Below are positions 22,368 to 33,499 of a DNA stretch of 44,950 bases, piece after piece. Positions within the stretch are counted from its first letter, which is position 1; each line of letters opens with the position of its first letter. This DNA is from a virus. Lineage: Duplodnaviria > Caudoviricetes. The stretch is taken from IMG/VR virus record IMGVR_UViG_3300020388_000025, positions 1 to 44,950 of that record. One strand, written 5' to 3'. The notes under the pieces are model-generated. The model made no database searches and was not told the DNA's origin. It worked only from the letters and a program-made list of their open reading frames with translations. The position numbers and the translations under genes are program-made.

Positions 22368-22860
22368 AGTAGAGATCACGGTGCTTAGTGGTATTTTTCT
22401 AATATCTGTATTGGCAATCAGTAATCCAATGCAAGCTGATGAAGTGTTTAAATTTAAAAACCCATCGTTTAGTGGATCCGGAACAGGAGCTCACTATCTA
22501 ACAATAGAAAACCAAGAGCATAGTAGAAAGAAAGCAATTAAAGATGCTATGGAAGCTGCACGTAAAGCAGCAGAAAGAGCAGAAGATAATACTACGATGG
22601 CAAAGTTTATAAGAAACCTAGAGAGTAGAATATATGCTCAGTTATCAAAACAATTAGTTGAATCAATGTTTAGTAATGATAACTCTGTAAGGTTTGGCTC
22701 TTTTGTATTAGAAGGTAATACTGTTACATATGAAGTTATTACAAATGAGGATGGTACAGAATATATACAAATGACTATTGTTGCAGAAGATGGAACAACT
22801 ACTGTTATTGAAATTCCAATTGGATCAGGCAACTTTGGTCAAGACCCGGACGTTGGCTGA
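22360..22860 (+). CDS. csgF: Curli assembly protein CsgF-like
   Basis: Signal peptide, FKFKNPSFSG, FIRNLESRIYAQLSKQL, GTTTVIEIP. Start revised to 22360 (GGAGG RBS). Confidence 0.85.
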   Translation: MDRVEITVLSGIFLISVLAISNPMQADEVFKFKNPSFSGSGTGAHYLTIENQEHSRKKAIKDAMEAARKAAERAEDNTTMAKFIRNLESRIYAQLSKQLVESMFSNDNSVRFGSFVLEGNTVTYEVITNEDGTEYIQMTIVAEDGTTTVIEIPIGSGNFGQDPDVG

Positions 22861-23828
22861 TGGAAGGAGTATTAGCATTATTATTAATACTAGGATTACT
22901 GAACGAATCAGAAACTCCTGTATGGTCAGAAACTCCACAAGAGTGTAAAGAAATAGAATACGAAGAAGTAGTAGATGCATTAACAGCATCAAAAAATTCT
23001 GTTAAGTATATACTAGAGAATACACAAAGAAAACATCATATATGTGTCGAAGAACCAGAAGCTATTAGATTACCATCATATATTGATTTATTAAACTTAC
23101 CAGCTGCTGATGAAATGCCTGTCGTAGCAGTATATGGTTTCTTAGATAAAACAGGTCAAAGAAAAGAGAGAGATGGTATAGCAGATTTCTCTACAGCCAC
23201 AACTCAAGGTGGTACAGAATTATTAATTGATGCTCTAAAAACAGCTGCCGATGGTAAATGGTTTAGAGTTGTAGAAAGACAAGGCATTGATAATCTAGTA
23301 CGAGAAAGACAGATTATACGAAGTGCAAGAATTGAATTTGCGGGCGACGGTGGTCCGCAACCATTAAATCCACTCCTATTTGCAGGAATGATAATAGAAG
23401 GTGGAATTATTGGCTACGATACTAATATAAAAACTGGTGGTCGGGGCGCACGACTATTAGGTATTGGTAAAAGTAAACAATATTCGCAAGATGTTGTTAC
23501 CGTATCTGTCAGAGCTGTTTCAGTTCTAACAGGTGAAGTATTATTGAATGTCCAAGCTAAGAAAACTATTCTTGGTTACGGTGGAAGTGGTGATATTTTT
23601 CGATTCGTCGATCAAAGTACCACTCTTGTAGAGTATGAGGACGGTGTGGGTAATAATGAGTCAGTGACATATGCAACACGAACAGCTATTGAAGCCGCCG
23701 TGTTGGAACTAGTATACCAGGGTCACGATAGAGGATTCTGGGTAATTAAAGATGGGCATCGCCATCCACATCTCATAGGTGGGGTTAACGATAAACATCA
23801 ATTAGAAGAGGTAAACGAAAATGAATAA
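22860..23828 (+). CDS. csgG: Curli secretion channel CsgG-like
   Basis: VAVYGFLDKTGQRK, FSTATTQG, WFRVVERQGIDNLVRERQIIR, IIEGGIIGYDTN. Confidence 0.93.
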   Translation: MEGVLALLLILGLLNESETPVWSETPQECKEIEYEEVVDALTASKNSVKYILENTQRKHHICVEEPEAIRLPSYIDLLNLPAADEMPVVAVYGFLDKTGQRKERDGIADFSTATTQGGTELLIDALKTAADGKWFRVVERQGIDNLVRERQIIRSARIEFAGDGGPQPLNPLLFAGMIIEGGIIGYDTNIKTGGRGARLLGIGKSKQYSQDVVTVSVRAVSVLTGEVLLNVQAKKTILGYGGSGDIFRFVDQSTTLVEYEDGVGNNESVTYATRTAIEAAVLELVYQGHDRGFWVIKDGHRHPHLIGGVNDKHQLEEVNENE

Positions 23829-24558
23829 ACTTTTAAGTATAGCGATGCTATTGTCGACATCCTTTGTTTTCGCTGCAGCCACTGATGATAACGAAATAAA
23901 AATCACACAAACTGGTGATACACTTAAATTATATGTAGATCAAATCGGTTTTGGAAACAAAATTGGTGGAAACGACTTTTCAAGTGGATCAGGAACTGTA
24001 ATGTTAATTACAGGTACAACACTAGAGTTTGATTTGGATTTCGCTGGTAACCAAAACGTTTTATTTGGACCTGTTACAGCTGATAGCTCAACCTATAAGC
24101 TTGATTTTACAGGTGATTCAAATGAAATAGATTGGAGTGTCGGAGCTTCAGGCAGTGCAGATGATACAGATATAAACTTTGACGTTACAGGTGATTCAAA
24201 CACTTTTGATATCGATCAAGGTTCTGCAGCAAGTGCAGAAAGATTAAATGCAGATTTAATCTTAATTGGTAGTTCAAATGTCTTTGATATCGACTGGGAA
24301 TCAGACGATAACATTTGGGATTTTGAAATTACTGGTGATAGTAACAATATTAATACGTTGCAAAACGACGGCGAACAAAACCTAGAATTCACTTTAACAG
24401 GTGATTCAGCAGATGTTGATATAAATCAAATATCTGGTACTTGTGCTACAGGTGCAAGTAATGCATGTTCTTCACCGAATGCAAATATTGTTTTAACTGT
24501 TACATCAGACAATGCGATTATTCAACTTAATCAAAAAGACGCAGCTAACGACAGCTAG
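23821..24558 (+). CDS. Secreted curlin-like beta-repeat protein
   Basis: Signal peptide; repeated (F/V/I)TGDSN and QxGxxN strand-turn units; very acidic. Confidence 0.7.
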   Translation: MNKLLSIAMLLSTSFVFAAATDDNEIKITQTGDTLKLYVDQIGFGNKIGGNDFSSGSGTVMLITGTTLEFDLDFAGNQNVLFGPVTADSSTYKLDFTGDSNEIDWSVGASGSADDTDINFDVTGDSNTFDIDQGSAASAERLNADLILIGSSNVFDIDWESDDNIWDFEITGDSNNINTLQNDGEQNLEFTLTGDSADVDINQISGTCATGASNACSSPNANIVLTVTSDNAIIQLNQKDAANDS

Positions 24559-25618
24559 TCTTTTACTCATCAGTGGGTTCGGTTATGCTGAACCCATTGG
24601 CGATATACGAGAATCCATTGGTTATGGTGGAATTACAAGAGATAAAGAAAACTATAGCCATGATGTCGGATTTGAAATTCAATTAAACGATACAGCTGAA
24701 ACTGCAAATGGCAGAATGCTAATTGAATTTTTAGATCAAGCAGAACTCCAACTCAAAGAACATTCAAGAGTCTTAATAGATACAGTCTATTATGACCCAG
24801 ACCCTAGCCTATCAAAAATGACTATGAGAATGGTCAGTGGTACAGCAAGATTTGCATCAGGTAAAAAGGGTTTAATTAATAAATCAAACATAGAAATATC
24901 AACACCAACCGCTACAATTGCTGTAAGGGGCACGGACTTCACCACAACAATAGATGAAATAGGACGAAGCCTTGTTATTTTATTACCCGACGATCAAGGT
25001 AAACCATCAGGTATTATTGAAGTATCAAACTCAGGTGGAACAGTAATATTAGATGAAGCATATGCAGCAACAATGATTGCATCATACGATAAATCACCAA
25101 CATCATCTACAGTTATAAATGGTATTACACCAGCTTTAATTGATAACATGTTTATTGTCAATCCACCAGCAGAAGTAAAACAACAGATAGAAGAAGAATT
25201 AGCAGACGAACAAAACGAAGATCAAGGTTTATTAGATATCGACTTTTTAGAATTTAATGAACTAGAAGAAGATGAATTAGCTGAAGATGAACTTGACGAT
25301 TTTAATGAATTAGATATTGATGAACTTGATGTTGAGTTTCTTATAGATGTTTTAGATATAGTTGACTCAGGCGACTTATTTGATACACTTGGTGAGTTTG
25401 ATCTTAAAGGTGCAAGAAGAGGTTTAAACGATGAATCACAATATAATGTTTTTCTAAGAGATGGAGATTTAGTTCTATACCGTAATGTAAACGGACTTAT
25501 AGAAATAACAATCGGAGCTGCTGGAAGTTTTACATTAGAAACAGATACACCAACTTGGCAAGGTTTAATTATAGGAAATGATGGCGATGACATAGACATT
25601 CGCATAAAACAATTATAA
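24512..25618 (+). CDS. FecR-domain exported protein with acidic linker
   Basis: Signal peptide; ETANGRMLIEFLD...ISTPTATIAVRGTDF...IEVSNSGG; D/E-rich repeats. Confidence 0.85.
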   Translation: MRLFNLIKKTQLTTASLLLISGFGYAEPIGDIRESIGYGGITRDKENYSHDVGFEIQLNDTAETANGRMLIEFLDQAELQLKEHSRVLIDTVYYDPDPSLSKMTMRMVSGTARFASGKKGLINKSNIEISTPTATIAVRGTDFTTTIDEIGRSLVILLPDDQGKPSGIIEVSNSGGTVILDEAYAATMIASYDKSPTSSTVINGITPALIDNMFIVNPPAEVKQQIEEELADEQNEDQGLLDIDFLEFNELEEDELAEDELDDFNELDIDELDVEFLIDVLDIVDSGDLFDTLGEFDLKGARRGLNDESQYNVFLRDGDLVLYRNVNGLIEITIGAAGSFTLETDTPTWQGLIIGNDGDDIDIRIKQL

Positions 25619-25621
25619 ATA
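25614..25621 (+). promoter_or_regulatory. T4-type late promoter
   Basis: TATAAATA overlapping the FecR stop codon, 5 nt before the next ATG. Confidence 0.7.
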
Positions 25622-25626
25622 AAGAT

Positions 25627-26295
25627 ATGAAAAAAATAATAATTATGTTAATGGTAATAGGAGTTTGTTTACTTGCCTTTGCTGCAAGTGCAGGTCCAAC
25701 AGACGATAATCATATTCATGTAGAACAAGTTGAAGGTGGAGATGATTTAAATTTAAACATAACACAAATAGGTTATGGTAATAATGTTAACTTTTCTTTT
25801 GCTCACGCAAGTAACACATTTGATTTAACACAAAATGGTACAGGTAATTCTATATCGTGGGTATCATATTGGGGTTCAGGTAAAAGCTGGGGCGGTGATG
25901 TTGACGGCACAGGCAATGACGAAACAGTATTACAATATGATGGTGCAACTTATGGTAGACATATATTAGGAAACAATAATACAGTAAATGTTTATCAACA
26001 TGGCTCACATACATTTAATTTAGATATACATGCTGATGATGTAGATATTGAATCATGGCAAGAAGGCGGAGGTTCTCATTATTCTCATGCATATTTTTAT
26101 GGTACAGCTGATGGCTCAACAGTTGATCTCATGCAGAAAGGAAGTGCAAATCATAACTCTCAAATAAGATTACAAGGTACAGAACCTACAACATTAAATC
26201 TATTACAACAAGGTAGTACGAATATGAGTTATTCTATTACGAATAATTGTTTTACTGTCGGTGGTTGTACAGTCAATGTCTCACAAGGCAATTAA
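25627..26295 (+). CDS. Second secreted curlin-like protein
   Basis: Signal peptide; ITQIGYGNN, LTQNGTGNS, VYQHG, LMQKG, LLQQG repeats; terminal Cys pair as in 23821. Confidence 0.75.
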   Translation: MKKIIIMLMVIGVCLLAFAASAGPTDDNHIHVEQVEGGDDLNLNITQIGYGNNVNFSFAHASNTFDLTQNGTGNSISWVSYWGSGKSWGGDVDGTGNDETVLQYDGATYGRHILGNNNTVNVYQHGSHTFNLDIHADDVDIESWQEGGGSHYSHAYFYGTADGSTVDLMQKGSANHNSQIRLQGTEPTTLNLLQQGSTNMSYSITNNCFTVGGCTVNVSQGN

Positions 26296-26374
26296 TGAAT
26301 AATTATAGTAGATTTATTCGATATCGTTATGGCTATCCAAGAAGATTTACAGGATTAATTATTGACATATACGT

Positions 26375-28216
26375 ATGAAATATCTTACTTCAATCTGGTC
26401 TACGCTATTACTACTCACAGGTTTAATACTTTTAAGAGTATATGACCCTATTGGATTAGTAGAACAAATTCGTTTAAACACATTTGATCAGTACATTAAA
26501 TCATTACCACAAGAGAAATCAAACGATATTGTTATCGTAAATATTGGTGAGAACTCTCTTGGATCCATGGGTCAATTCCCTTGGCCAAGACAAGAATATG
26601 CACAAATGATTTCTGATCTAAGAGAAGTCAATGCAGGTTATATAGGGTTTACAATTATGTACCCAGAACCTGATAGATTTGGTGGTGATAAAATCTTCTC
26701 GCAATATATGCAAGACAATGGGATTATCTTATCACAAGATGTAGATTCAAACGGAAGGGCAGACAGTGCACCGTATGTCGGTTATGCAACCTTTGGTACA
26801 TCAGAACCTTTAGACTTTATATACAAATATGATGGTTTAGTTGCCAATATTAATATATTAGAACATGAAGCATGGGGTATTGGATTAATAAATGCTGCAC
26901 CTGAAGTAGATAATATCACAAGAAGAATACCACTCATATCAAATGTAAAAGATCAACTCTATCCATCATTTGCTTTAGAAATGACTAGACTTGCATTTGA
27001 CAATCTATCATACACAATTAAATCAAACGAAGCTGGAATAGAAAGTATTGTTGTGAGGCCATTTGAAATACCTACAGATAGTGATGGTTCTATATGGCTA
27101 AAGTGGAATACAGAATTTGAGGAAATAGAATACGAAAGACTAATGCCTGGTATTGATAACTTAGAAGGCAAGACAATTATTATAGGTGTATCAGCAAAAG
27201 GATTAGCTAATCAGATACCTACTCCTGGTGGTCTGATGTATCCAGCCCAGCTTCAAGCCGCAGCTCTGCAAACAATTCTTTCAGACAATCCGATTTCTCG
27301 TCCTGTTTGGGCCGATTCAATAGAAATTTTGGTAAGTTTATTTCTTGCTCTTGTATTGATTTTACTGGTATACCACGCACCGATCTGGGTATCTGGTCTT
27401 GGCTTCGTCGTTCTTTGTGTTGGACAAGCCGGAGTGACTTTTTATATCTGGAATAAATTTTATATACTCCTCGATCTTAGTTATTCTCTAATATTATATA
27501 TAATTTCTTTTGCTTCAACGAGTTTTAATAACTTCTATAAACAATTTGTATTGAGACAACAGATAAAGAAACAGTTTGAAACATATCTGGATCCAAGACA
27601 GGTAGCACTATTACAAAAAGACCCAAGTAGATTAAAGCTTGGTGGTGAAAGAAAAGAAATGACATTTATGTTTATGGACATCGTAGGGTTCACTCCGATA
27701 TCAGAACACTATAAAAATAAAAATGACCCAGAAGGGTTAGTAGATATTATAAATACTTATTTAGACCGTATGACCAAAATTATTTTAAACAATGGTGGTA
27801 CAATAGACAAATACATGGGCGATTGTATCATGGCATTTTGGAACGCTCCTTTGGACGAACCAGATCATGCAGATAAAGCAATACAAACATCCATTGAAAT
27901 AGAGAGAGCAGCAAATGAACTTATTAAAGAACTTGAAGAAAAGGGTTTACCTCGTATTGATGTTGGGATTGGTATCAATTCCGGTACTTGCATCGTCGGA
28001 AACATGGGATCAGAAACTAGATTTGACTATTCCGTCATTGGAGATGCCGTCAATCTCGCAGCTAGACTCGAAGGACAAACTCGCAATTACGATGGGGTTC
28101 GAGTGTTGTTGGGACAAGAAACTTATAAACTCTGTAAAGCAAGAAAATTCACGGAAGTTGATAGGATTCTCGTTAAAGGAAAAAAAGAAAAGACTACGAT
28201 TTATACCAATCACTAA
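26375..28216 (+). CDS. CHASE2-domain class III adenylate cyclase
   Basis: TM, CHASE2 (GQFPWPR, YPEPDRFGGD), 3 TM, then FMDIVGFT, IDKYMGDCIMAFWNAP, RFDYSVIGDAVNLAARLE. Confidence 0.95.
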   Translation: MKYLTSIWSTLLLLTGLILLRVYDPIGLVEQIRLNTFDQYIKSLPQEKSNDIVIVNIGENSLGSMGQFPWPRQEYAQMISDLREVNAGYIGFTIMYPEPDRFGGDKIFSQYMQDNGIILSQDVDSNGRADSAPYVGYATFGTSEPLDFIYKYDGLVANINILEHEAWGIGLINAAPEVDNITRRIPLISNVKDQLYPSFALEMTRLAFDNLSYTIKSNEAGIESIVVRPFEIPTDSDGSIWLKWNTEFEEIEYERLMPGIDNLEGKTIIIGVSAKGLANQIPTPGGLMYPAQLQAAALQTILSDNPISRPVWADSIEILVSLFLALVLILLVYHAPIWVSGLGFVVLCVGQAGVTFYIWNKFYILLDLSYSLILYIISFASTSFNNFYKQFVLRQQIKKQFETYLDPRQVALLQKDPSRLKLGGERKEMTFMFMDIVGFTPISEHYKNKNDPEGLVDIINTYLDRMTKIILNNGGTIDKYMGDCIMAFWNAPLDEPDHADKAIQTSIEIERAANELIKELEEKGLPRIDVGIGINSGTCIVGNMGSETRFDYSVIGDAVNLAARLEGQTRNYDGVRVLLGQETYKLCKARKFTEVDRILVKGKKEKTTIYTNH

Positions 28217-28550
28217 CGAACCTAGTGAAGCTCAATTAAGATATTTCTGGTTTATAAATGCTTTAGATATGGGTGGCTCATATCACTATACAAGAAACCA
28301 TCCTAACATAAAAGAAGCCAATTGGTTACTACCAGACAAACCTAGTGCAGCCCAATTCTTATTACAAAAAGGAATTACAGCTCCTATCGCAGCTCAGAAT
28401 TTTGAAGCAGGGCAAATAGGAATTGCCAATGTAGTAATTACATTGGTTGTTTTAAGAAATCATTATCTCTACGAGAACACATCAAAATGTAGAATAGGAC
28501 CAAATGGTGCTAACTATAATGCTGATGGTACTTGTTTTATCAATAAATAA
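27915..28550 (+). CDS. Putative exported/membrane protein overlapping the cyclase 3' end (start uncertain)
   Basis: Fills 28217-28550; NALD...KEANWLL and hydrophobic helices; signal-peptide-like N-terminus inside the overlap. Confidence 0.55.
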   Translation: MNLLKNLKKRVYLVLMLGLVSIPVLASSETWDQKLDLTIPSLEMPSISQLDSKDKLAITMGFECCWDKKLINSVKQENSRKLIGFSLKEKKKRLRFIPITNEPSEAQLRYFWFINALDMGGSYHYTRNHPNIKEANWLLPDKPSAAQFLLQKGITAPIAAQNFEAGQIGIANVVITLVVLRNHYLYENTSKCRIGPNGANYNADGTCFINK

Positions 28551-28576
28551 CACAAATCCTTAAATACAATTAGTTA

Positions 28577-28659
28577 TGTTACAGTTGTGTGACAACTGTG
28601 TAACAATTGTGTGAACTCTTCCAAAAACCGTTTACACAGCTGCCAAAACATGGTATAAT
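28577..28659 (+). promoter_or_regulatory. Strong early promoter with four 11-bp phased upstream repeats
   Basis: TGTTACA/TGTGACA/TGTAACA/TGTGAAC at 28577, 28588, 28599, 28610; TTTACA(28631)-17-TATAAT(28654). Confidence 0.85.
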
Positions 28660-28688
28660 ATAACTATAAATTTGATAAGGAGAAAAGA

Positions 28689-29024
28689 ATGATTTATAAC
28701 ATAATAGTAAAAAACAAGATTTCAAAGGAATCTAAGTATAGCGCATATAGCGTGGATAAAGTAATTAACTTTTTTAAAGATGATCTAGGATATTGTCTTA
28801 ACCCGGTCCAAGGTTCATTTAACAAATTTTGGATGTCAGGTAAATACATCAAAGATGAAGTTGGTGGAAGTTATAAATCAGGATTTATAGAAGGTTCTAA
28901 GTATTACAAATTGGTTGTAAACGATAGAGACTTTGGAATAGAATCAGGTGGTGATTTAAATGGATGGCAAATGGCCGGAATCATCAAACAAGAAATGCTT
29001 GAAAAATTAAGGAGTGCAAAATAA
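28689..29024 (+). CDS. Early hypothetical protein
   Basis: TAAGGAG RBS directly after the early promoter. Confidence 0.75.
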   Translation: MIYNIIVKNKISKESKYSAYSVDKVINFFKDDLGYCLNPVQGSFNKFWMSGKYIKDEVGGSYKSGFIEGSKYYKLVVNDRDFGIESGGDLNGWQMAGIIKQEMLEKLRSAK

Positions 29025-29263
29025 TGAGAAAAGTAGTATTAAAAGGATTTCCAATAATTAATGGTGTGGTACGTGATGGTGCTATCATAGAGATACCAGT
29101 ACCAGCAGACCTACAAGAATTGGCTTTAGATAAAAGCCAAGATGAAGGTGCTAAGTGGGACTTAATGTGTAAGAGATTACCGTCCTATGGATTTATGAAT
29201 CCAATTGGCAATATGTCAATAAGCCATCTAGTGATAGATGGAGTGGAAAAGGAATTCCACTAA
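29024..29263 (+). CDS. Early hypothetical protein
   Basis: TAAGGAG RBS; TAATG coupling. Confidence 0.75.
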   Translation: MRKVVLKGFPIINGVVRDGAIIEIPVPADLQELALDKSQDEGAKWDLMCKRLPSYGFMNPIGNMSISHLVIDGVEKEFH

Positions 29264-29269
29264 AAATAA

Positions 29270-29578
29270 ACAGGAATCGAGGAAGAGCTGTAGTTGGTTG
29301 GTTGTTGTGAAGCTCTACGAAAATCCCGGTCCTAACTGTTAAAGTCAATTAAGACGTGGCATATAGTTGTGAGGTTAGGATATAAAGGAAACAATGAAGT
29401 AACTGAAATTCTAGGAGTGGTTGGGAAGTTATGGAAAACGAGAGACCTTATGGTGGCAAGCTATCCACCTAGATAAAATTCAGGTAAGGCCTGACTTAGA
29501 AGGACACGCTGTAAAGAATAGGGATAACACCCTAGAGTTGAACAACTATAAACTCAATGTGACTGGCGAGTCACAAAG
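29270..29578 (+). ncRNA. Candidate structured non-coding RNA (~310 nt), family not recognised
   Basis: Longest ORF-free stretch in the window, visibly GC-richer, with many local and long-range complementary segments (see findings). Confidence 0.65.
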
Positions 29579-29581
29579 TTA

Positions 29582-29642
29582 TGTGACAATTGTGTGACAA
29601 TTTAAAAAAACCGTTGACAATTGCAGAAATACGTGATACTAT
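29582..29642 (+). promoter_or_regulatory. Second early promoter with 11-bp phased repeats
   Basis: TGTGACA at 29582 and 29593; TTGACA(29614)-17-TACTAT(29637) with TG extension; same architecture as 28577-28659. Confidence 0.85.
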
Positions 29643-29676
29643 AGACATATAAATTAATAATGATAAGGAGAAAAAA

Positions 29677-29793
29677 ATGAGTGATTATTATAACAATGAC
29701 GACCTAGCAGATCAACTAGATGACGTCTTAAAAAAATTAGCCGTAATGGAAAATAAGCTTGATCAGCTTTTAAAAGATAAGGAGTCTAAGTAA
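29677..29793 (+). CDS. 38-aa coiled-coil early peptide, not in the ORF track
   Basis: TAAGGAG RBS; MSDYYNNDDLADQLDDVLKKLAVMENKLDQLLKDKESK; TAATG coupling. Confidence 0.7.
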   Translation: MSDYYNNDDLADQLDDVLKKLAVMENKLDQLLKDKESK

Positions 29794-30239
29794 TGAATTA
29801 TATTAAATTTGAAAATGTCAGCGAAGACATATCTTACGCAGTAGGCTCTTCTCTTAGAGGCTATATTGATGAAGTAACTACAAACCAATTGATTGCAATG
29901 TTTGGTGAGCCAAGCAGAGTACCTTCTGGTGATGGCAAAGTTCAACTTGAATGGATTATTAAAACTAAACTGATAGATTCAGATGGAACTGAAACAGATA
30001 GTTGTTTCACACTTTACGATTGGAAAGGTTCAGCACCTTCCAACGATGATGTTGAATGGAGAATCAATGTTGGTGGTAGATCACAATTAGATTACTACAA
30101 TGTATTCGATGCATTTGATATTGCAAATCAAACAGATTTCTTATATGCTTACGATGGTGATGGCAAACTATGTCAATCCAAAGAAGGCTTTAATTTACAT
30201 CTATTGGAGATGTGCAAAGCGGAGGCAGCAAATGGATAG
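29793..30239 (+). CDS. Early hypothetical protein
   Basis: TAAGGAG RBS; LIAMFGEP...DGKVQLEW...TLYDWK...WRINVGG. Confidence 0.75.
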   Translation: MNYIKFENVSEDISYAVGSSLRGYIDEVTTNQLIAMFGEPSRVPSGDGKVQLEWIIKTKLIDSDGTETDSCFTLYDWKGSAPSNDDVEWRINVGGRSQLDYYNVFDAFDIANQTDFLYAYDGDGKLCQSKEGFNLHLLEMCKAEAANG

Positions 30240-30537
30240 AACAGATTCTTATGTAATGACTGCTTATACTGCTTCTGCTGGTGATATGTTAGAAATTAAC
30301 ACAATCAGAAATACAGTTAAGTCAATAAACAAACTAATTAAACGAGCTGAAAGAGACCACAATAACCATCCAATGAATGACGACCTTGCAATCTTTCCTA
30401 GATATCGTGTTAATGTTAAAGGTAGGTATGGAAGAAACAATCCAAACTATTGTCCTCATAGAGGAAAGTCTGGATCAGTACCTTTAGAACATGCCGAAAG
30501 AGTGGATGTTTATATTCATAGGAGTAACAGATGGTAA
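30232..30537 (+). CDS. Early hypothetical protein
   Basis: Start revised to MDRTDSY (GGAGG RBS) from 30100. Confidence 0.7.
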   Translation: MDRTDSYVMTAYTASAGDMLEINTIRNTVKSINKLIKRAERDHNNHPMNDDLAIFPRYRVNVKGRYGRNNPNYCPHRGKSGSVPLEHAERVDVYIHRSNRW

Positions 30538-30701
30538 TGCACTTTGAACACATTGCAACTCGTATACCAACAAATGTAAGAGTTGACATTTGGAGTTCTA
30601 TATGTTATAATATAGGATTGAAAGATAAAGCTATTAATAGAGTTATGGCTTTTTATAAATTAGAAGAAACAGATTATTTTTACGAAGGAGTAACAAAATG
30701 A
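30537..30701 (+). CDS. Possible 54-aa protein containing an internal promoter
   Basis: TAATG and ATGA overlaps fill the gap exactly. Confidence 0.5.
   Translation: MHFEHIATRIPTNVRVDIWSSICYNIGLKDKAINRVMAFYKLEETDYFYEGVTK
30583..30611 (+). promoter_or_regulatory. Sigma70-type promoter
   Basis: TTGACA-17-TATAAT with TG extension. Confidence 0.8.
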
Positions 30702-30985
30702 GTGATTTATCATTTGCTGAAATCAAAGCTCAGCTATTAGCTGAAAAAGAAAAATACCAGGCAGAGGTAGAATTTCAAAAAACTGTCAAACGAGTCTATG
30801 CAAGACCAAAAGATTATGGTCGACTTACAAAGTCTATTAAGAAAGCTGAACATCTGGCAGCAGGTGGATTAGATTTACACAAAGACGAAAATAGACACCA
30901 CACAAAAGAAAGTACCGATAGATGGCTGAGCGGTACTTCTTATATGGAAACTTACGAAGCCATGAGGAGTCAAGATGAGTATTGA
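30698..30985 (+). CDS. Hypothetical protein
   Basis: AAGGAG RBS. Confidence 0.7.
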   Translation: MSDLSFAEIKAQLLAEKEKYQAEVEFQKTVKRVYARPKDYGRLTKSIKKAEHLAAGGLDLHKDENRHHTKESTDRWLSGTSYMETYEAMRSQDEY

Positions 30986-31085
30986 TTATTTAATAGAACA
31001 AATTATATTTATGCTACATGTTATGATGGGTGCTACATTCTGTGCATGTGTTTATTTAGCAGTAGATTGGTTTAGAAAACTGTGA
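30975..31085 (+). CDS. 36-aa single-TM peptide, not in the ORF track
   Basis: GAGGAG RBS; hydrophobic core. Confidence 0.5.
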   Translation: MSIDYLIEQIIFMLHVMMGATFCACVYLAVDWFRKL

Positions 31086-31255
31086 GATTATTAGAAGCAA
31101 ACTATGGAGATGTTAGAGTCTTTTCAGAAAGACCATTTGGATATAAAAGATATATCGTAGAATGGAAAGATGGACCTACAACTATGTATTCTGGATTATG
31201 GTATAAGAAAGAAACAGTATTAAAATTAATTGAGGAAAAATTAAAAGATGAGTGA
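31082..31255 (+). CDS. 57-aa hypothetical protein, not in the ORF track
   Basis: GTGA overlap; MRLLEANYGDVRVFSERPFGYKRYIVEW. Confidence 0.6.
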   Translation: MRLLEANYGDVRVFSERPFGYKRYIVEWKDGPTTMYSGLWYKKETVLKLIEEKLKDE

Positions 31256-31517
31256 ATATGATGACGTGGTCGAAAGACAAAGACAATTATTATTAGCAGA
31301 AGAATGGGCATCAGGTGTATCAAGTATACATGCGCATTCTACAAATACAATGGCCTATGATGATAGACCAGGAGATACTGCAAATGGCGAAGGTGTGACA
31401 GATACACAATTTAATAATGGTTTAATTCAAAGAACAAAAAATGGTAAAGTAATACATTACTTTGGTACAAAATTAGAAGGTGAAGATTTAATTGCAGCAT
31501 GGAGGCAAAAAAACTAG
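31248..31517 (+). CDS. Hypothetical protein
   Basis: ORF track; packed with neighbours. Confidence 0.7.
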   Translation: MSEYDDVVERQRQLLLAEEWASGVSSIHAHSTNTMAYDDRPGDTANGEGVTDTQFNNGLIQRTKNGKVIHYFGTKLEGEDLIAAWRQKN

Positions 31518-31546
31518 TTGACAATACAATTCAATTGTGTTATAAT
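31518..31546 (+). promoter_or_regulatory. Sigma70-type promoter with extended -10
   Basis: TTGACA-17-TATAAT preceded by TGTGT. Confidence 0.88.
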
Positions 31547-31554
31547 ATAATATT

Positions 31555-31911
31555 ATGGGAATGACAAATTTTTACATGGGCTCACTAAGGTATTCACCTT
31601 GTGGCAGAAAGCGAAAAAATCATTTAGCTAATCCAGCTAAAAAGAAAATGGTTGCATTTAAGAAAGCAATTATAGAACAAACTCAGCTTGATATTATGCG
31701 AGCAGAGCAAGCAAAACAATACAAATCAGTTATGGAAGAAGCTATTAAAGATGGTACATGGTTAAGTAAGTCTGGTCATTGTAATAAGAAAGAAAATCCC
31801 ATGTACACAGGAACACTAGTAAAAGGTATTGCAACGATGCACAAATCAAATGCGGTACCTGTAATTAGTCAGCAAGAAGCTGAAGACATTGCAAAAATGA
31901 GGAGAGGTTAA
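31555..31911 (+). CDS. Conserved hypothetical protein
   Basis: YTGTLVKGIATMHKSNAVPV motif seen in T4-like phages. Confidence 0.75.
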   Translation: MGMTNFYMGSLRYSPCGRKRKNHLANPAKKKMVAFKKAIIEQTQLDIMRAEQAKQYKSVMEEAIKDGTWLSKSGHCNKKENPMYTGTLVKGIATMHKSNAVPVISQQEAEDIAKMRRG

Positions 31912-32036
31912 TGAAGTGGTTTATAACATTAATATTTGACTTCTGGTCTAAAATTTTTGAATGGTCTTTTAAGCTATTAGGATTGTTTATGATCTTATAT
32001 ACAATTGTATACTTGTGGACAGGCGGAAACATATGA
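31911..32036 (+). CDS. Possible 41-aa membrane peptide
   Basis: TAATG coupling, GAGG RBS, hydrophobic. Confidence 0.45.
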   Translation: MKWFITLIFDFWSKIFEWSFKLLGLFMILYTIVYLWTGGNI

Positions 32037-32080
32037 AAGGATATTGTTTTCACAACAGTTAAATTTAAGGTAGGGTTATT

Positions 32081-32287
32081 ATGATAACAGAAGAAGGAAG
32101 TAAAAATATGATATCAAGTTTTCAACGAGAAACTTTGACATCAGATTTATTTGAAATGAATGGAGTATATGGTTGCGATTATTATAAAGATGGAGTATTA
32201 TTAGCAACAGAAGTATATGCAGGTAAAAGCATACATTATGCTCAAAATGCTGCGGAGAATTACGTAGATGGAATTAAACAAGTTTAA
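32081..32287 (+). CDS. Hypothetical protein
   Basis: KSIHYAQNAAENYVDG motif. Confidence 0.65.
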   Translation: MITEEGSKNMISSFQRETLTSDLFEMNGVYGCDYYKDGVLLATEVYAGKSIHYAQNAAENYVDGIKQV

Positions 32288-32288
32288 C

Positions 32289-32335
32289 AGGTTGACCGGG
32301 GTTTCTAACTCCTTATCATTAGCTTCGGTTAACCT
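32289..32335 (+). ncRNA. Intergenic RNA hairpin with an anti-Shine-Dalgarno loop
   Basis: 15-bp stem with 4 G-U pairs; 17-nt loop TCTAACTCCTTATCATT. Confidence 0.55.
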
Positions 32336-32353
32336 AATTTATATATATTTACT

Positions 32354-33499
32354 ATGAGAAAAAGAACAAAGAAAAGAGGACCATCGTTAGAGGATCAATA
32401 CTTAGGTGCAGAACCTAGTTATGGACCACACAATCCTGTAGGCGAAGGCGACGAAAGAGACAGAGAATATCACAGAGGTGCTAATTGGTTCTATTACTAT
32501 GAGAATAGAAAGAAAGCACATACTGCTATTTTATATTATGCCAAACATGATCTTAAATTAACAGCAAAAGAAATAGTTAATTTAAATAAAAATCCTGTAT
32601 GGAAAATTAATCAATCAAATTATAAACCAGTTGCAATGTTTCAAGCAGGCTGGGTTGGAGCTCCTTTAGATTTAGATGCAGTGAATACACGATTGCGTGA
32701 TCTAGTGAAAGAAGGTGAGAAGATCAAACTTGAAAAACTACAAGAGAGCCCACCAACGCCTGTGATTTCACCACAAGAAAGAACACGAAAGAAAGTGGTA
32801 GAAACTATATGGAGTGATTGGGATTCTACTATTGTAGAAGGTTGGTTCACTGAGAACTTTACACAAAAGTTTTCAGCATATAATAGATTTAAAGGTCATG
32901 GATTAAAAAGCAATTCAATTAATATATTTAAAAATATGTTAGAAGTAGAATACAATAATATTAAAGATGCGTATGATAAAACATGCGAACAATGTATAGA
33001 AGCGTATTCACATATTACTAAAGGTAATAAGAAAAAGATATTAAATCAATTTGAGGAAGTGTTTGCTGATCTGGAGAAACTCAGAACATCATTTAAAGCA
33101 ACACGAACACCAAGAGCATTGAAACCAAAAACATCAGATAAGCAGGTTGAAAGATTACAATACATGAAAGAAAGTATTGATGATAAACTTGTTTCAATTA
33201 ATCCTGTACTTATTCCAGGTAGTCATAAGCTTTATGTTTATAATACAAAGCAAAGAAGATTATTTGAATACACAACAGATTCCATTAATGGATTCGAAGT
33301 TGCTGGTACAACAATTAAAAACTTTGATGCAGAAAGTAGAGTTACACTTCTACGTAAACCAGAAGAGATATTACCATCGGTTTTAAATAAAACTGAAAAG
33401 CAAATAGAAAAAATGTGGAGTAATATTACAACAAAAATAGGTAAACCAACAGGAAGAATAAACGCTGACTGTATTTTACTAAGGGTATTTAAAAGATAA
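32354..33499 (+). CDS. Conserved T4-like hypothetical protein upstream of gp33
   Basis: SINPVLIPG...LYVYNTKQRRL...GTTIKNFD...LRKPEE...GRINADCILLRV. Confidence 0.75.
   Translation: MRKRTKKRGPSLEDQYLGAEPSYGPHNPVGEGDERDREYHRGANWFYYYENRKKAHTAILYYAKHDLKLTAKEIVNLNKNPVWKINQSNYKPVAMFQAGWVGAPLDLDAVNTRLRDLVKEGEKIKLEKLQESPPTPVISPQERTRKKVVETIWSDWDSTIVEGWFTENFTQKFSAYNRFKGHGLKSNSINIFKNMLEVEYNNIKDAYDKTCEQCIEAYSHITKGNKKKILNQFEEVFADLEKLRTSFKATRTPRALKPKTSDKQVERLQYMKESIDDKLVSINPVLIPGSHKLYVYNTKQRRLFEYTTDSINGFEVAGTTIKNFDAESRVTLLRKPEEILPSVLNKTEKQIEKMWSNITTKIGKPTGRINADCILLRVFKR

Follow-up and report, generated by a model that had tools for sequence, protein, structure and literature searches.

The question raised by this locus is whether the largest gap between the listed ORFs of an uncultured phage genome harbors a functional RNA and, if so, what such an RNA may do in the infected cell. 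The window, i.e. the whole stretch of DNA analyzed, comprises 44,950 nucleotides (IMG/VR record IMGVR_UViG_3300020388_000025). An initial annotation, made from the letters alone, had proposed a structured non-coding RNA of about 310 nt at 29270-29578, located in an ORF-free, GC-richer interval. The gap is indeed the largest one (29264-29676, 413 nt; the next largest has 171 nt) and the GC content of the RNA interval is 0.41 compared to 0.33 for the whole window, but the interval is not completely free of reading frames: a 58-codon frame with a TTG start (29421-29597) overlaps the RNA. This frame has no PHROG match and is not conserved among the homologues. Furthermore, the difference in length from the window copy is not a multiple of three in 27 of 64 copies, an argument against coding.

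Matches to PHROGs (NrdA/B, gp33, gp59, gp32 and tail genes) place the source genome fragment among the T4-like myophages. Its gp32 is 51-54% identical to the gp32 of C48C1, Pelagibacter phage HTVC008M, Methylophilales phage Melnitz and cyanophages. CsgG, FecR, a CHASE2 cyclase and IscU/NifU were identified by Pfam; CsgG, FecR and the CHASE2 adenylate cyclase form a module at 22860-28216. A curli operon is named among the pelagimyophage features in the accessible part of PMC7029224. Judged by its genes, the carrier of the RNA is an uncultured marine T4-like myophage with a pelagimyophage curli module; a host lookup via the IscU protein returned no taxonomy. Counted from its first ATG, a 211-aa ORF (27915-28550) shares about 300 nt with the cyclase gene (26375-28216); the true start of the ORF probably lies later.

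Homologues of the RNA were found in more than 125 IMG/VR contigs. They fall into four clades (A to D), with identities down to 57% within three of them. A scan with an exact pattern left at least 113 loci (7 of 120 rows dropped as chance), and a second pattern, independent of the 5' core, yielded at least 15 loci of the divergent clade D (6 of 120 rows dropped as chance). In a metagenome scan 18 of 48 loci were real and 30 were dropped as chance. Alignments of 23, 64 and 36 homologues were built. The one referred to as A4 comprises 64 unique full-length sequences of clades A to C with identities down to 57%; of 66 such sequences two, one with an insertion and one with a deletion, were omitted. 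When five long contigs were searched with a model built from A4, each gave a single copy. CsgG is present in all five long contigs tested for it. The RNA gene was found at several unrelated loci, with one copy per contig checked. Among cultured phages, blastn with the four clade versions as query gave short chance matches only, and the A4 model gave only coding-region noise in C48C1, HTVC008M, Melnitz, Syn33 and T4 (best 20.2 bits). Two GTDB pattern matches were rejected as chance, one exact pattern being a weak test for cellular homologues.

The comparison of these homologues supports a fold of eight helices and three pseudoknots backed by compensatory changes (Table 1). In an unguided covariation scan (our own implementation, not R-scape; effective sequence number about 20) eight column pairs exceeded every value of 30 tree-simulated null alignments. 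These pairs are located in P2, P3a, P3b, P4, P6 and PK1, and standard pairs make up at least 98% of each. The 58-pair model has 91.0% of its cells paired, compared to 69.4% after shuffling and 35-48% after sliding, and two-sided change was detected at 41 of the 58 pairs. The value of 91% is lowered because two P5 pairs are offset by one base and the MAFFT alignment displaces P1/P2 of clades A and B; anchored strand tables were used for the P1 and P2 counts. P1 closes the junction of P2, P3 and P4/P5, with P6, P7 and P8 coming after it. It is continuous over 6-7 bp in 54 of 64 copies, its strand sequences differ per clade, and it is retained in clade D, which rebuilds the helices with different letters. 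P2 comprises 5-6 bp in all 64 copies with eight strand variants. Many unpaired positions are invariant in the alignments as well.

Table 1. Features of the RNA gene and its surroundings in the window (all on the + strand)
Feature	Position	Strand	Remarks
Sigma-70-type promoter	28631..28659	+	11 of 12, extended -10; likely drives the RNA in the window genome
Two small ORFs (111, 79 aa)	28689..29263	+	upstream, same predicted transcript
Structured non-coding RNA gene, ~278 nt	29273..29550	+	homologue alignments and covariation; ends inferred from conservation
P1	29273-29278/29442-29447	+	closing helix of the 5' domain; two mismatches break it in the window copy
P2 hairpin	29284..29316	+	21-nt G/U-rich loop with invariant GWUGG (UGG 29295-29297)
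P3a	29325-26/29387-88	+	pair 29325-29388 beyond tree-based null
P3b	29330-37/29373-80	+	99.6% of cells paired; 29331-29379 and 29336-29374 beyond tree-based null
P3c	29344-46/29358-60	+	weaker; terminal mismatches in several copies
PK3	29347-29349/29537-29539	+	AAT/RTT in 64/64; TGT/ACA in 11/11 clade D
PK1	29365-29370/29542-29547	+	9 bp in the window copy (29362-29370/29542-29550)
P4	29399-29404/29427-29432	+	98.1% paired; two-sided change at 5/5 pairs
P4 with variable P5 hairpin	29399..29441	+	flanking pentamers TGAAA (29404-08) and TGGGA (29422-26), then GGAAAACGA
P6 hairpin	29452..29469	+	100% of cells paired; two pairs beyond null
PK2	P6 loop 29459-29461/29508-29510	+	three pairs
P7 hairpin, optional	29480..29494	+	missing from 15/64
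P8 hairpin, variable length	29519..29534	+	longer in two clade D copies
TGTGACA repeats and next sigma-70-type promoter (29614-29642)	29558..29642	+	outside the RNA

Among the pseudoknots, PK1 is paired in 99.7% of the cells with two-sided change at five of six pairs, the pair 29368-29544 exceeds the null, and clade D carries its own variants. Two of the three PK2 pairs are intact in all 49 P7-bearing copies, with C-G, G-C and U-A swaps; PK2 is broken in the 15 P7-less copies and paired in all 11 of clade D. The support for PK3 is one clade-level event in which two positions were compensated. Through PK1 and PK3 the 3' tail would fold back into the P3 loop, locking a compact RNA-only core to which P5, P7 and P8 are probably peripheral. 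RNAalifold recovered P3a, P3b, P4, P6 and P8; it drew false pairs at the P2 loop and at the 3' end because pseudoknots cannot be drawn by it.

The nine strand pairs quoted in the initial annotation were all found in place, and six of them belong to the conserved fold with compensatory changes: AGAGCT/AGCTCT (29284/29311, P2), TCCTAAC/GTTAGGA (29330/29374, P3b), GGTGG/CCACC (29452/29465, P6), TCAGG/CCTGA (29480/29490, the optional P7), TAGGG/CCCTA (29519/29530, P8) and the core of the pseudoknot-like pairing 29362/29542 (PK1). The other three are not part of it. AAGTCA 29342/TGACTT 29492 is fully paired in three of 64 copies and without two-sided change, GAGTT 29535/AACTC 29551 is paired in a single copy of 64, and TGTGACT/AGTCACA at 29558 lies outside the conserved RNA, which ends near 29550 and is therefore shorter than proposed, and belongs to the TGTGACA repeats upstream of the early promoters. 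P1, P3a, P3c, P4/P5 and the two short pseudoknots had been missed. Further pairings considered by us were rejected, namely CGTG/CACG, a candidate for the RNase P P4 pseudoknot between CR-I and CR-V (no two-sided change, broken in 16 of 64 copies) and, by eye, UUGUU/AACAA and CCUU/AAGG, given P1 and the variation between clades.

The folding energy, which had been named beforehand as a measure of the candidate, did not distinguish it from shuffled sequences: the z-score of the + strand was -0.75, with 22 of 100 shuffles folding equally well, and ten homologues had values of +0.55 to -1.42. The - strand reached -3.1 in the window copy, a value not shared by the homologues. We overrule the poor energy scores because the comparative evidence supports the fold. 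An excess of G-U over A-C at paired cells of the homologue alignment (264 vs 57) assigns the RNA to the + strand.

Some variants of the gene were observed. A 94-nt insertion between the 5' strand of P3b and the invariant core (L134:505-598, +; also L159 and L240; two contigs only) had no Rfam match and folded no better than shuffles; it could be a small intron, a mobile element or a marker of an exterior junction. Another copy (L109:1007-1244, -; also L186), beside tRNA-Glu, is devoid of about 60 nt including the 3' strand of P1, P6 and P7 and is possibly a decayed gene or an assembly error. In L202:1282-1551 (+) a 5' half of clade A is joined to a P7-less 3' half of clade B, suggesting recombination between clades and modular domains.

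We compared 97 distinct genomic contexts. In clade A, a sigma-70-type promoter ends 9-10 nt before P1 in all 40 contexts and a terminator-like hairpin was detected in 30 of 34. The six mapped clade A loci lie beside the major capsid gene (gp23) with neighbours on the opposite strand, and no same-strand ORF follows the terminator. With its own promoter, usually its own terminator and no downstream ORF, this RNA is not a leader. For clade C, promoters were detected in 17 of 35 contexts and terminators in three of 33. None of 19 clade B contexts has a promoter; in this clade the RNA starts right after tRNA-Asp in 18 of 21 contexts. In eight of 36 clade C contexts the RNA is followed by a tRNA-Glu gene, and in clade D 14 of 15 loci have tRNA-Arg or tRNA-Asp there, the RNA ending 10-25 nt before the tRNA where both are adjacent. 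Adjacent tRNA genes thus occur in three clades (B, C, D) and involve three tRNA types. None of the 40 clade A contexts has an adjacent tRNA gene, the distance being 10 kb or more in three long contigs, and ARAGORN detected no tRNA gene in the window. The protein-coding neighbours vary (cyclase, Hsp20 and gp43, gp23, IscU/IscA; names by reading translations), without a constant one across the contexts mapped. Reverse transcriptase (PF00078) was absent from the five long contigs (29-81% complete) and from the flanking ORFs viewed.

In the window itself no promoter-like site was found on the + strand between 28944 and 29594, and no U-tract terminator of the RNA's own. The RNA likely rides on the transcript from the 28631 promoter, as had been suggested initially, and it is likely made early by the host sigma-70 polymerase. 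The 111- and 79-aa ORFs in between have no PHROG or Pfam match and are not constant partners of the RNA, other contexts showing different genes or none. TGTGACA repeats with an 11-bp period (28572-28608 and 29558-29602) are located just upstream of two early sigma-70 promoters and directly after the phage adenylate cyclase; we take them to resemble Pho-box or CRP half-sites.

Other elements lie near the RNA in its relatives. A conserved element of about 55 nt between RNA and terminator (L174:1716-1772, +; also L185, L187, L223, L234, L255, L271 and L202) has a two-helix internal-loop shape and no Rfam match; it may represent another small RNA or a 3' module accessory to the first. In L162 (1728-1822, +) and L172 a GC-richer element of about 100 nt with a 9-bp closing stem, again without Rfam match, directly follows the RNA in the place of the relatives' tRNA-Glu. 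A glnA riboswitch (RF01739, 56.4 bits; L202:1835-1898, -) is found just after the major capsid gene and upstream of a short basic ORF. L197 and L209 carry a 98-aa ORF on the - strand about 700-1250 nt upstream of the RNA, by eye similar to ribosomal protein S21, and, immediately following the clade B RNA, IscU/IscA-like genes preceded by a T4 late promoter.

The RNA is present in contigs of marine metatranscriptomes. Four runs of one marine study (two samples) contain near-identical contigs over 28679-32500 with little cover of 27500-28600; in two runs the contigs begin at 28679, which fits a transcript from the 28631 promoter. Two runs have a contig over the RNA at a depth of 62 and 30.5 compared to roughly 3-18 for neighbouring contigs, but these depths are contig means that may include DNA or relatives, and genes cannot be ranked by them. 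In four further studies short contigs of relatives cover the RNA. One of them, 237 nt long, begins at 29273 and leaves no loose end, hinting at the 5' end of the RNA. The contigs are records of presence, from which strand, level and discreteness of the transcript are not read.

Rfam 15, whose families include ROOL, GOLLD, raiA, IMES and ribozymes, gave no match in the window at the gathering score and none at E values up to 10 in 29000-29900; loci of clades A, B, C and D yielded only flanking tRNAs, the glnA riboswitch elsewhere and sub-threshold noise. The initial reading as a folded phage RNA, possibly of a new class, is supported. A tRNA or tmRNA was rejected (no ARAGORN gene in the window, no conserved frame), and the same applies for an ncRNA associated with a reverse transcriptase (retron, DRT, UG27), since no linked reverse transcriptase occurs in the five incomplete contigs. 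For RNase P RNA, a set of 23 Bacteroidia sequences was used for comparison. Profile searches in both directions gave nothing below E 0.45, a blind chain of RNase P motifs scored at most 8 compared to 115-123 for real RNase P (p 0.02-0.4), and weight matrices for CR-I and CR-V reached at most 2.8 and 0.4 bits, so that this identity was rejected, too. Full-text literature searches, mostly covering journals outside subscription, gave no description of the RNA, and it is not mentioned in the accessible parts of 2026 genome-language-model preprints. The candidates of Fremin 2023 (PMC10690425) measure 30-151 nt in the accessible part of that work, so a fragment of the RNA could be among them; a motif and contig-id search of its readable tables found nothing and is a weak test, the accessible part of the main table having neither sequences nor contig ids.

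Taking covariation, the relatives' own promoters and terminators and the RNA-library contigs together, we are highly confident that this is a real trans-acting RNA gene. By comparative evidence it is a triple-pseudoknot RNA of an uncatalogued family. In genomic habit it is closest to ROOL and GOLLD, which according to the accessible part of bioRxiv 10.1101/2024.12.08.627333 are phage-encoded, contain several pseudoknots and often lie beside tRNA genes. These RNAs differ from the one described here in topology and in size (about 660 and more than 800 nt vs about 275 nt), and no common sequence is detectable by Rfam. The T4 RNAs rnaC and rnaD (species 1 and 2) are likewise stable and of unassigned function, and their genes belong to a tRNA cluster of a T4-type phage. 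However, they comprise 139 and 119 nt, are classed as late RNAs and by inspection each end in a tRNA-like GG(G)T..GAAT/AAAC arm; the A4 model found nothing in their locus.

The RNA is best read as acting in trans. Our leading guess for its mechanism, a tentative one drawn from motifs and analogy, is that of a tRNA clamp: the phage RNA may grip a host tRNA in trans at the elbow and at the 3' CCA end. The pentamers WGAAA and UGGRA, located one on each strand between P4 and P5, would interlock as a double T-loop predicted to stack on the tRNA elbow. The invariant UGG of the P2 loop would pair with the CCA of an uncharged tRNA, and the clamp would shield or sequester the tRNA during host takeover. 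As far as the accessible parts of the sources show, T-boxes have the T-loop consensus AGAGA plus UGxRA and a UGGN motif binding the tRNA NCCA end (PMC7583486), and the double T-loop is common to T-boxes, RNase P and the L1 stalk, with further cases anticipated (PMC4810234). In favor of the clamp, the covarying P4 is adjacent to near-universal pentamers, found in 73 of 75 sequences on the strands that link P4 to the variable P5 (L080 and L081 are without the first U of the pattern), and GWUGGW is present in the P2 loop of all 75. Furthermore, all 23 RNase P RNAs contain WGARA followed by UGNRA and then a consensus GGnAAAC as in the phage RNA, and tRNA genes are directly adjacent in most clade B and D contexts and some of clade C. 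However, the pentamer-between-helices pattern was also found in 34-70 of 500 shuffles (7-14%) and in nine of 154 window tiles; with this frequency and homologues of one ancestry it provides no more than a lead. The low score of the blind RNase P motif chain speaks against the clamp as well. Part of both pentamers can be covered by an AATT/RRTT pairing in most copies, and the same letters would be explained by a tandem G-A or kink-turn-like loop. A weak internal pairing of the UGG with the invariant UUAA (29339-29342) is also conceivable. Clade A and the window have no adjacent tRNA gene, and adjacency, which is also shown by ROOL and GOLLD, RNAs not known to bind tRNA, can serve to give processed ends.

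The likeness to T-boxes is one of motifs only (two pentamers near AGAGA/UGxRA and an unpaired UGGN; consensus from the accessible part of PMC7583486). The phage RNA has no specifier loop, T-box sequence, expression platform or Rfam match, is a stand-alone gene and carries its pentamers as two strands of an internal loop, whereas T-boxes use a bulge plus an apical loop. From type A RNase P RNA (RF00010), whose specificity domain has the same succession of WGARA, capping hairpin, UGNRA and GGWAAAC, it differs by the absence of the P4 pseudoknot and of the catalytic conserved regions. More doubtful than the clamp itself is the wider claim that this RNA would join the ribosomal L1 stalk, RNase P and T-boxes as a fourth class recognizing the tRNA elbow by interdigitated T-loops, and that it would be the first free phage-encoded clamp, protecting or sequestering host tRNA in infected abundant marine bacteria.

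About equally likely as the tRNA clamp, and just as tentative, is a compactly folded, ROOL/GOLLD-like RNA-only scaffold or decoy, which may multimerise and would bind a protein or complex of the host, such as the polymerase, the ribosome or a defence protein, instead of tRNA. The shared habit of phage location, several pseudoknots and frequent tRNA neighbours points in this direction, as do the many invariant unpaired positions and the lack of a constant protein neighbour, with reverse transcriptase in none of the five long incomplete contigs. On the other hand, the RNA does not match the Rfam models of ROOL and GOLLD and has less than half their size, a candidate partner was not identified, and no covarying self-complementary loop was seen.

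That the RNA is a new ribozyme, with the neighbouring tRNA precursor or a molecule in trans as its substrate, is less likely than these two readings, and we consider it rather improbable. Pseudoknots and invariant purine-rich junctions, both present here (three pseudoknots), are typical of catalytic RNAs, and clade B copies follow tRNA-Asp immediately, those of clades C and D being separated by 10-25 nt from a downstream tRNA. In clade A, however, it is free-standing with nothing to cleave in cis, no ribozyme family scores and the RNase P P4 pairing is absent. Still less probable is an antisense regulator whose G/U-rich P2 loop would serve as the seed for pairing with C/A-rich mRNAs of host or phage. 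GcvB is an example of an RNA with G/U seeds, and an exposed G/U loop of 21-24 nt exists in all clades, but beyond GWUGG its sequence varies between clades, three pseudoknots are unnecessary for a seed, and the best match elsewhere in the window (-22.5 kcal/mol; window only) falls within a continuous tail of scores.

Very improbable is a degenerate, phage-captured RNase P RNA with the specificity domain kept and catalysis lost. Short motifs do occur in RNase P order (GAGGAA, WGAAA-hairpin-UGGRA, GGWAAAC, AGATAAA), and the pattern of the specificity domain (CR-II, P12, CR-III double T-loop) is that found in 73 of 75 sequences and in 7-14% of shuffles, but no RNase P model scores, the motif chain is not significant (ungapped, p 0.05-0.9), the strand next to GAGGAA pairs locally in P2, and clade D is without GAGGAA there. 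A cis-acting leader, DNA element or short coding region, for which the position of the window RNA inside an early operon, the overlapping 58-codon frame and the ordinary folding energy might speak, is largely refuted and hardly credible given the G-U excess fitting a + strand RNA, the off-frame lengths, the clade A terminator without a same-strand ORF downstream and the varying downstream neighbours.

Large pseudoknotted RNAs of bacteria and phages are rare, and the phage ones (ROOL, GOLLD, T4 rnaC/D) are without known function. The RNA described here is small enough for whole synthesis, probing and imaging, and its natural deletion and insertion variants mark dispensable parts. If the proposed tRNA binding is false, it would still be a new RNA fold with strong comparative support. 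If it is true, the RNA would represent a new phage route to manage host translation in the surface ocean.
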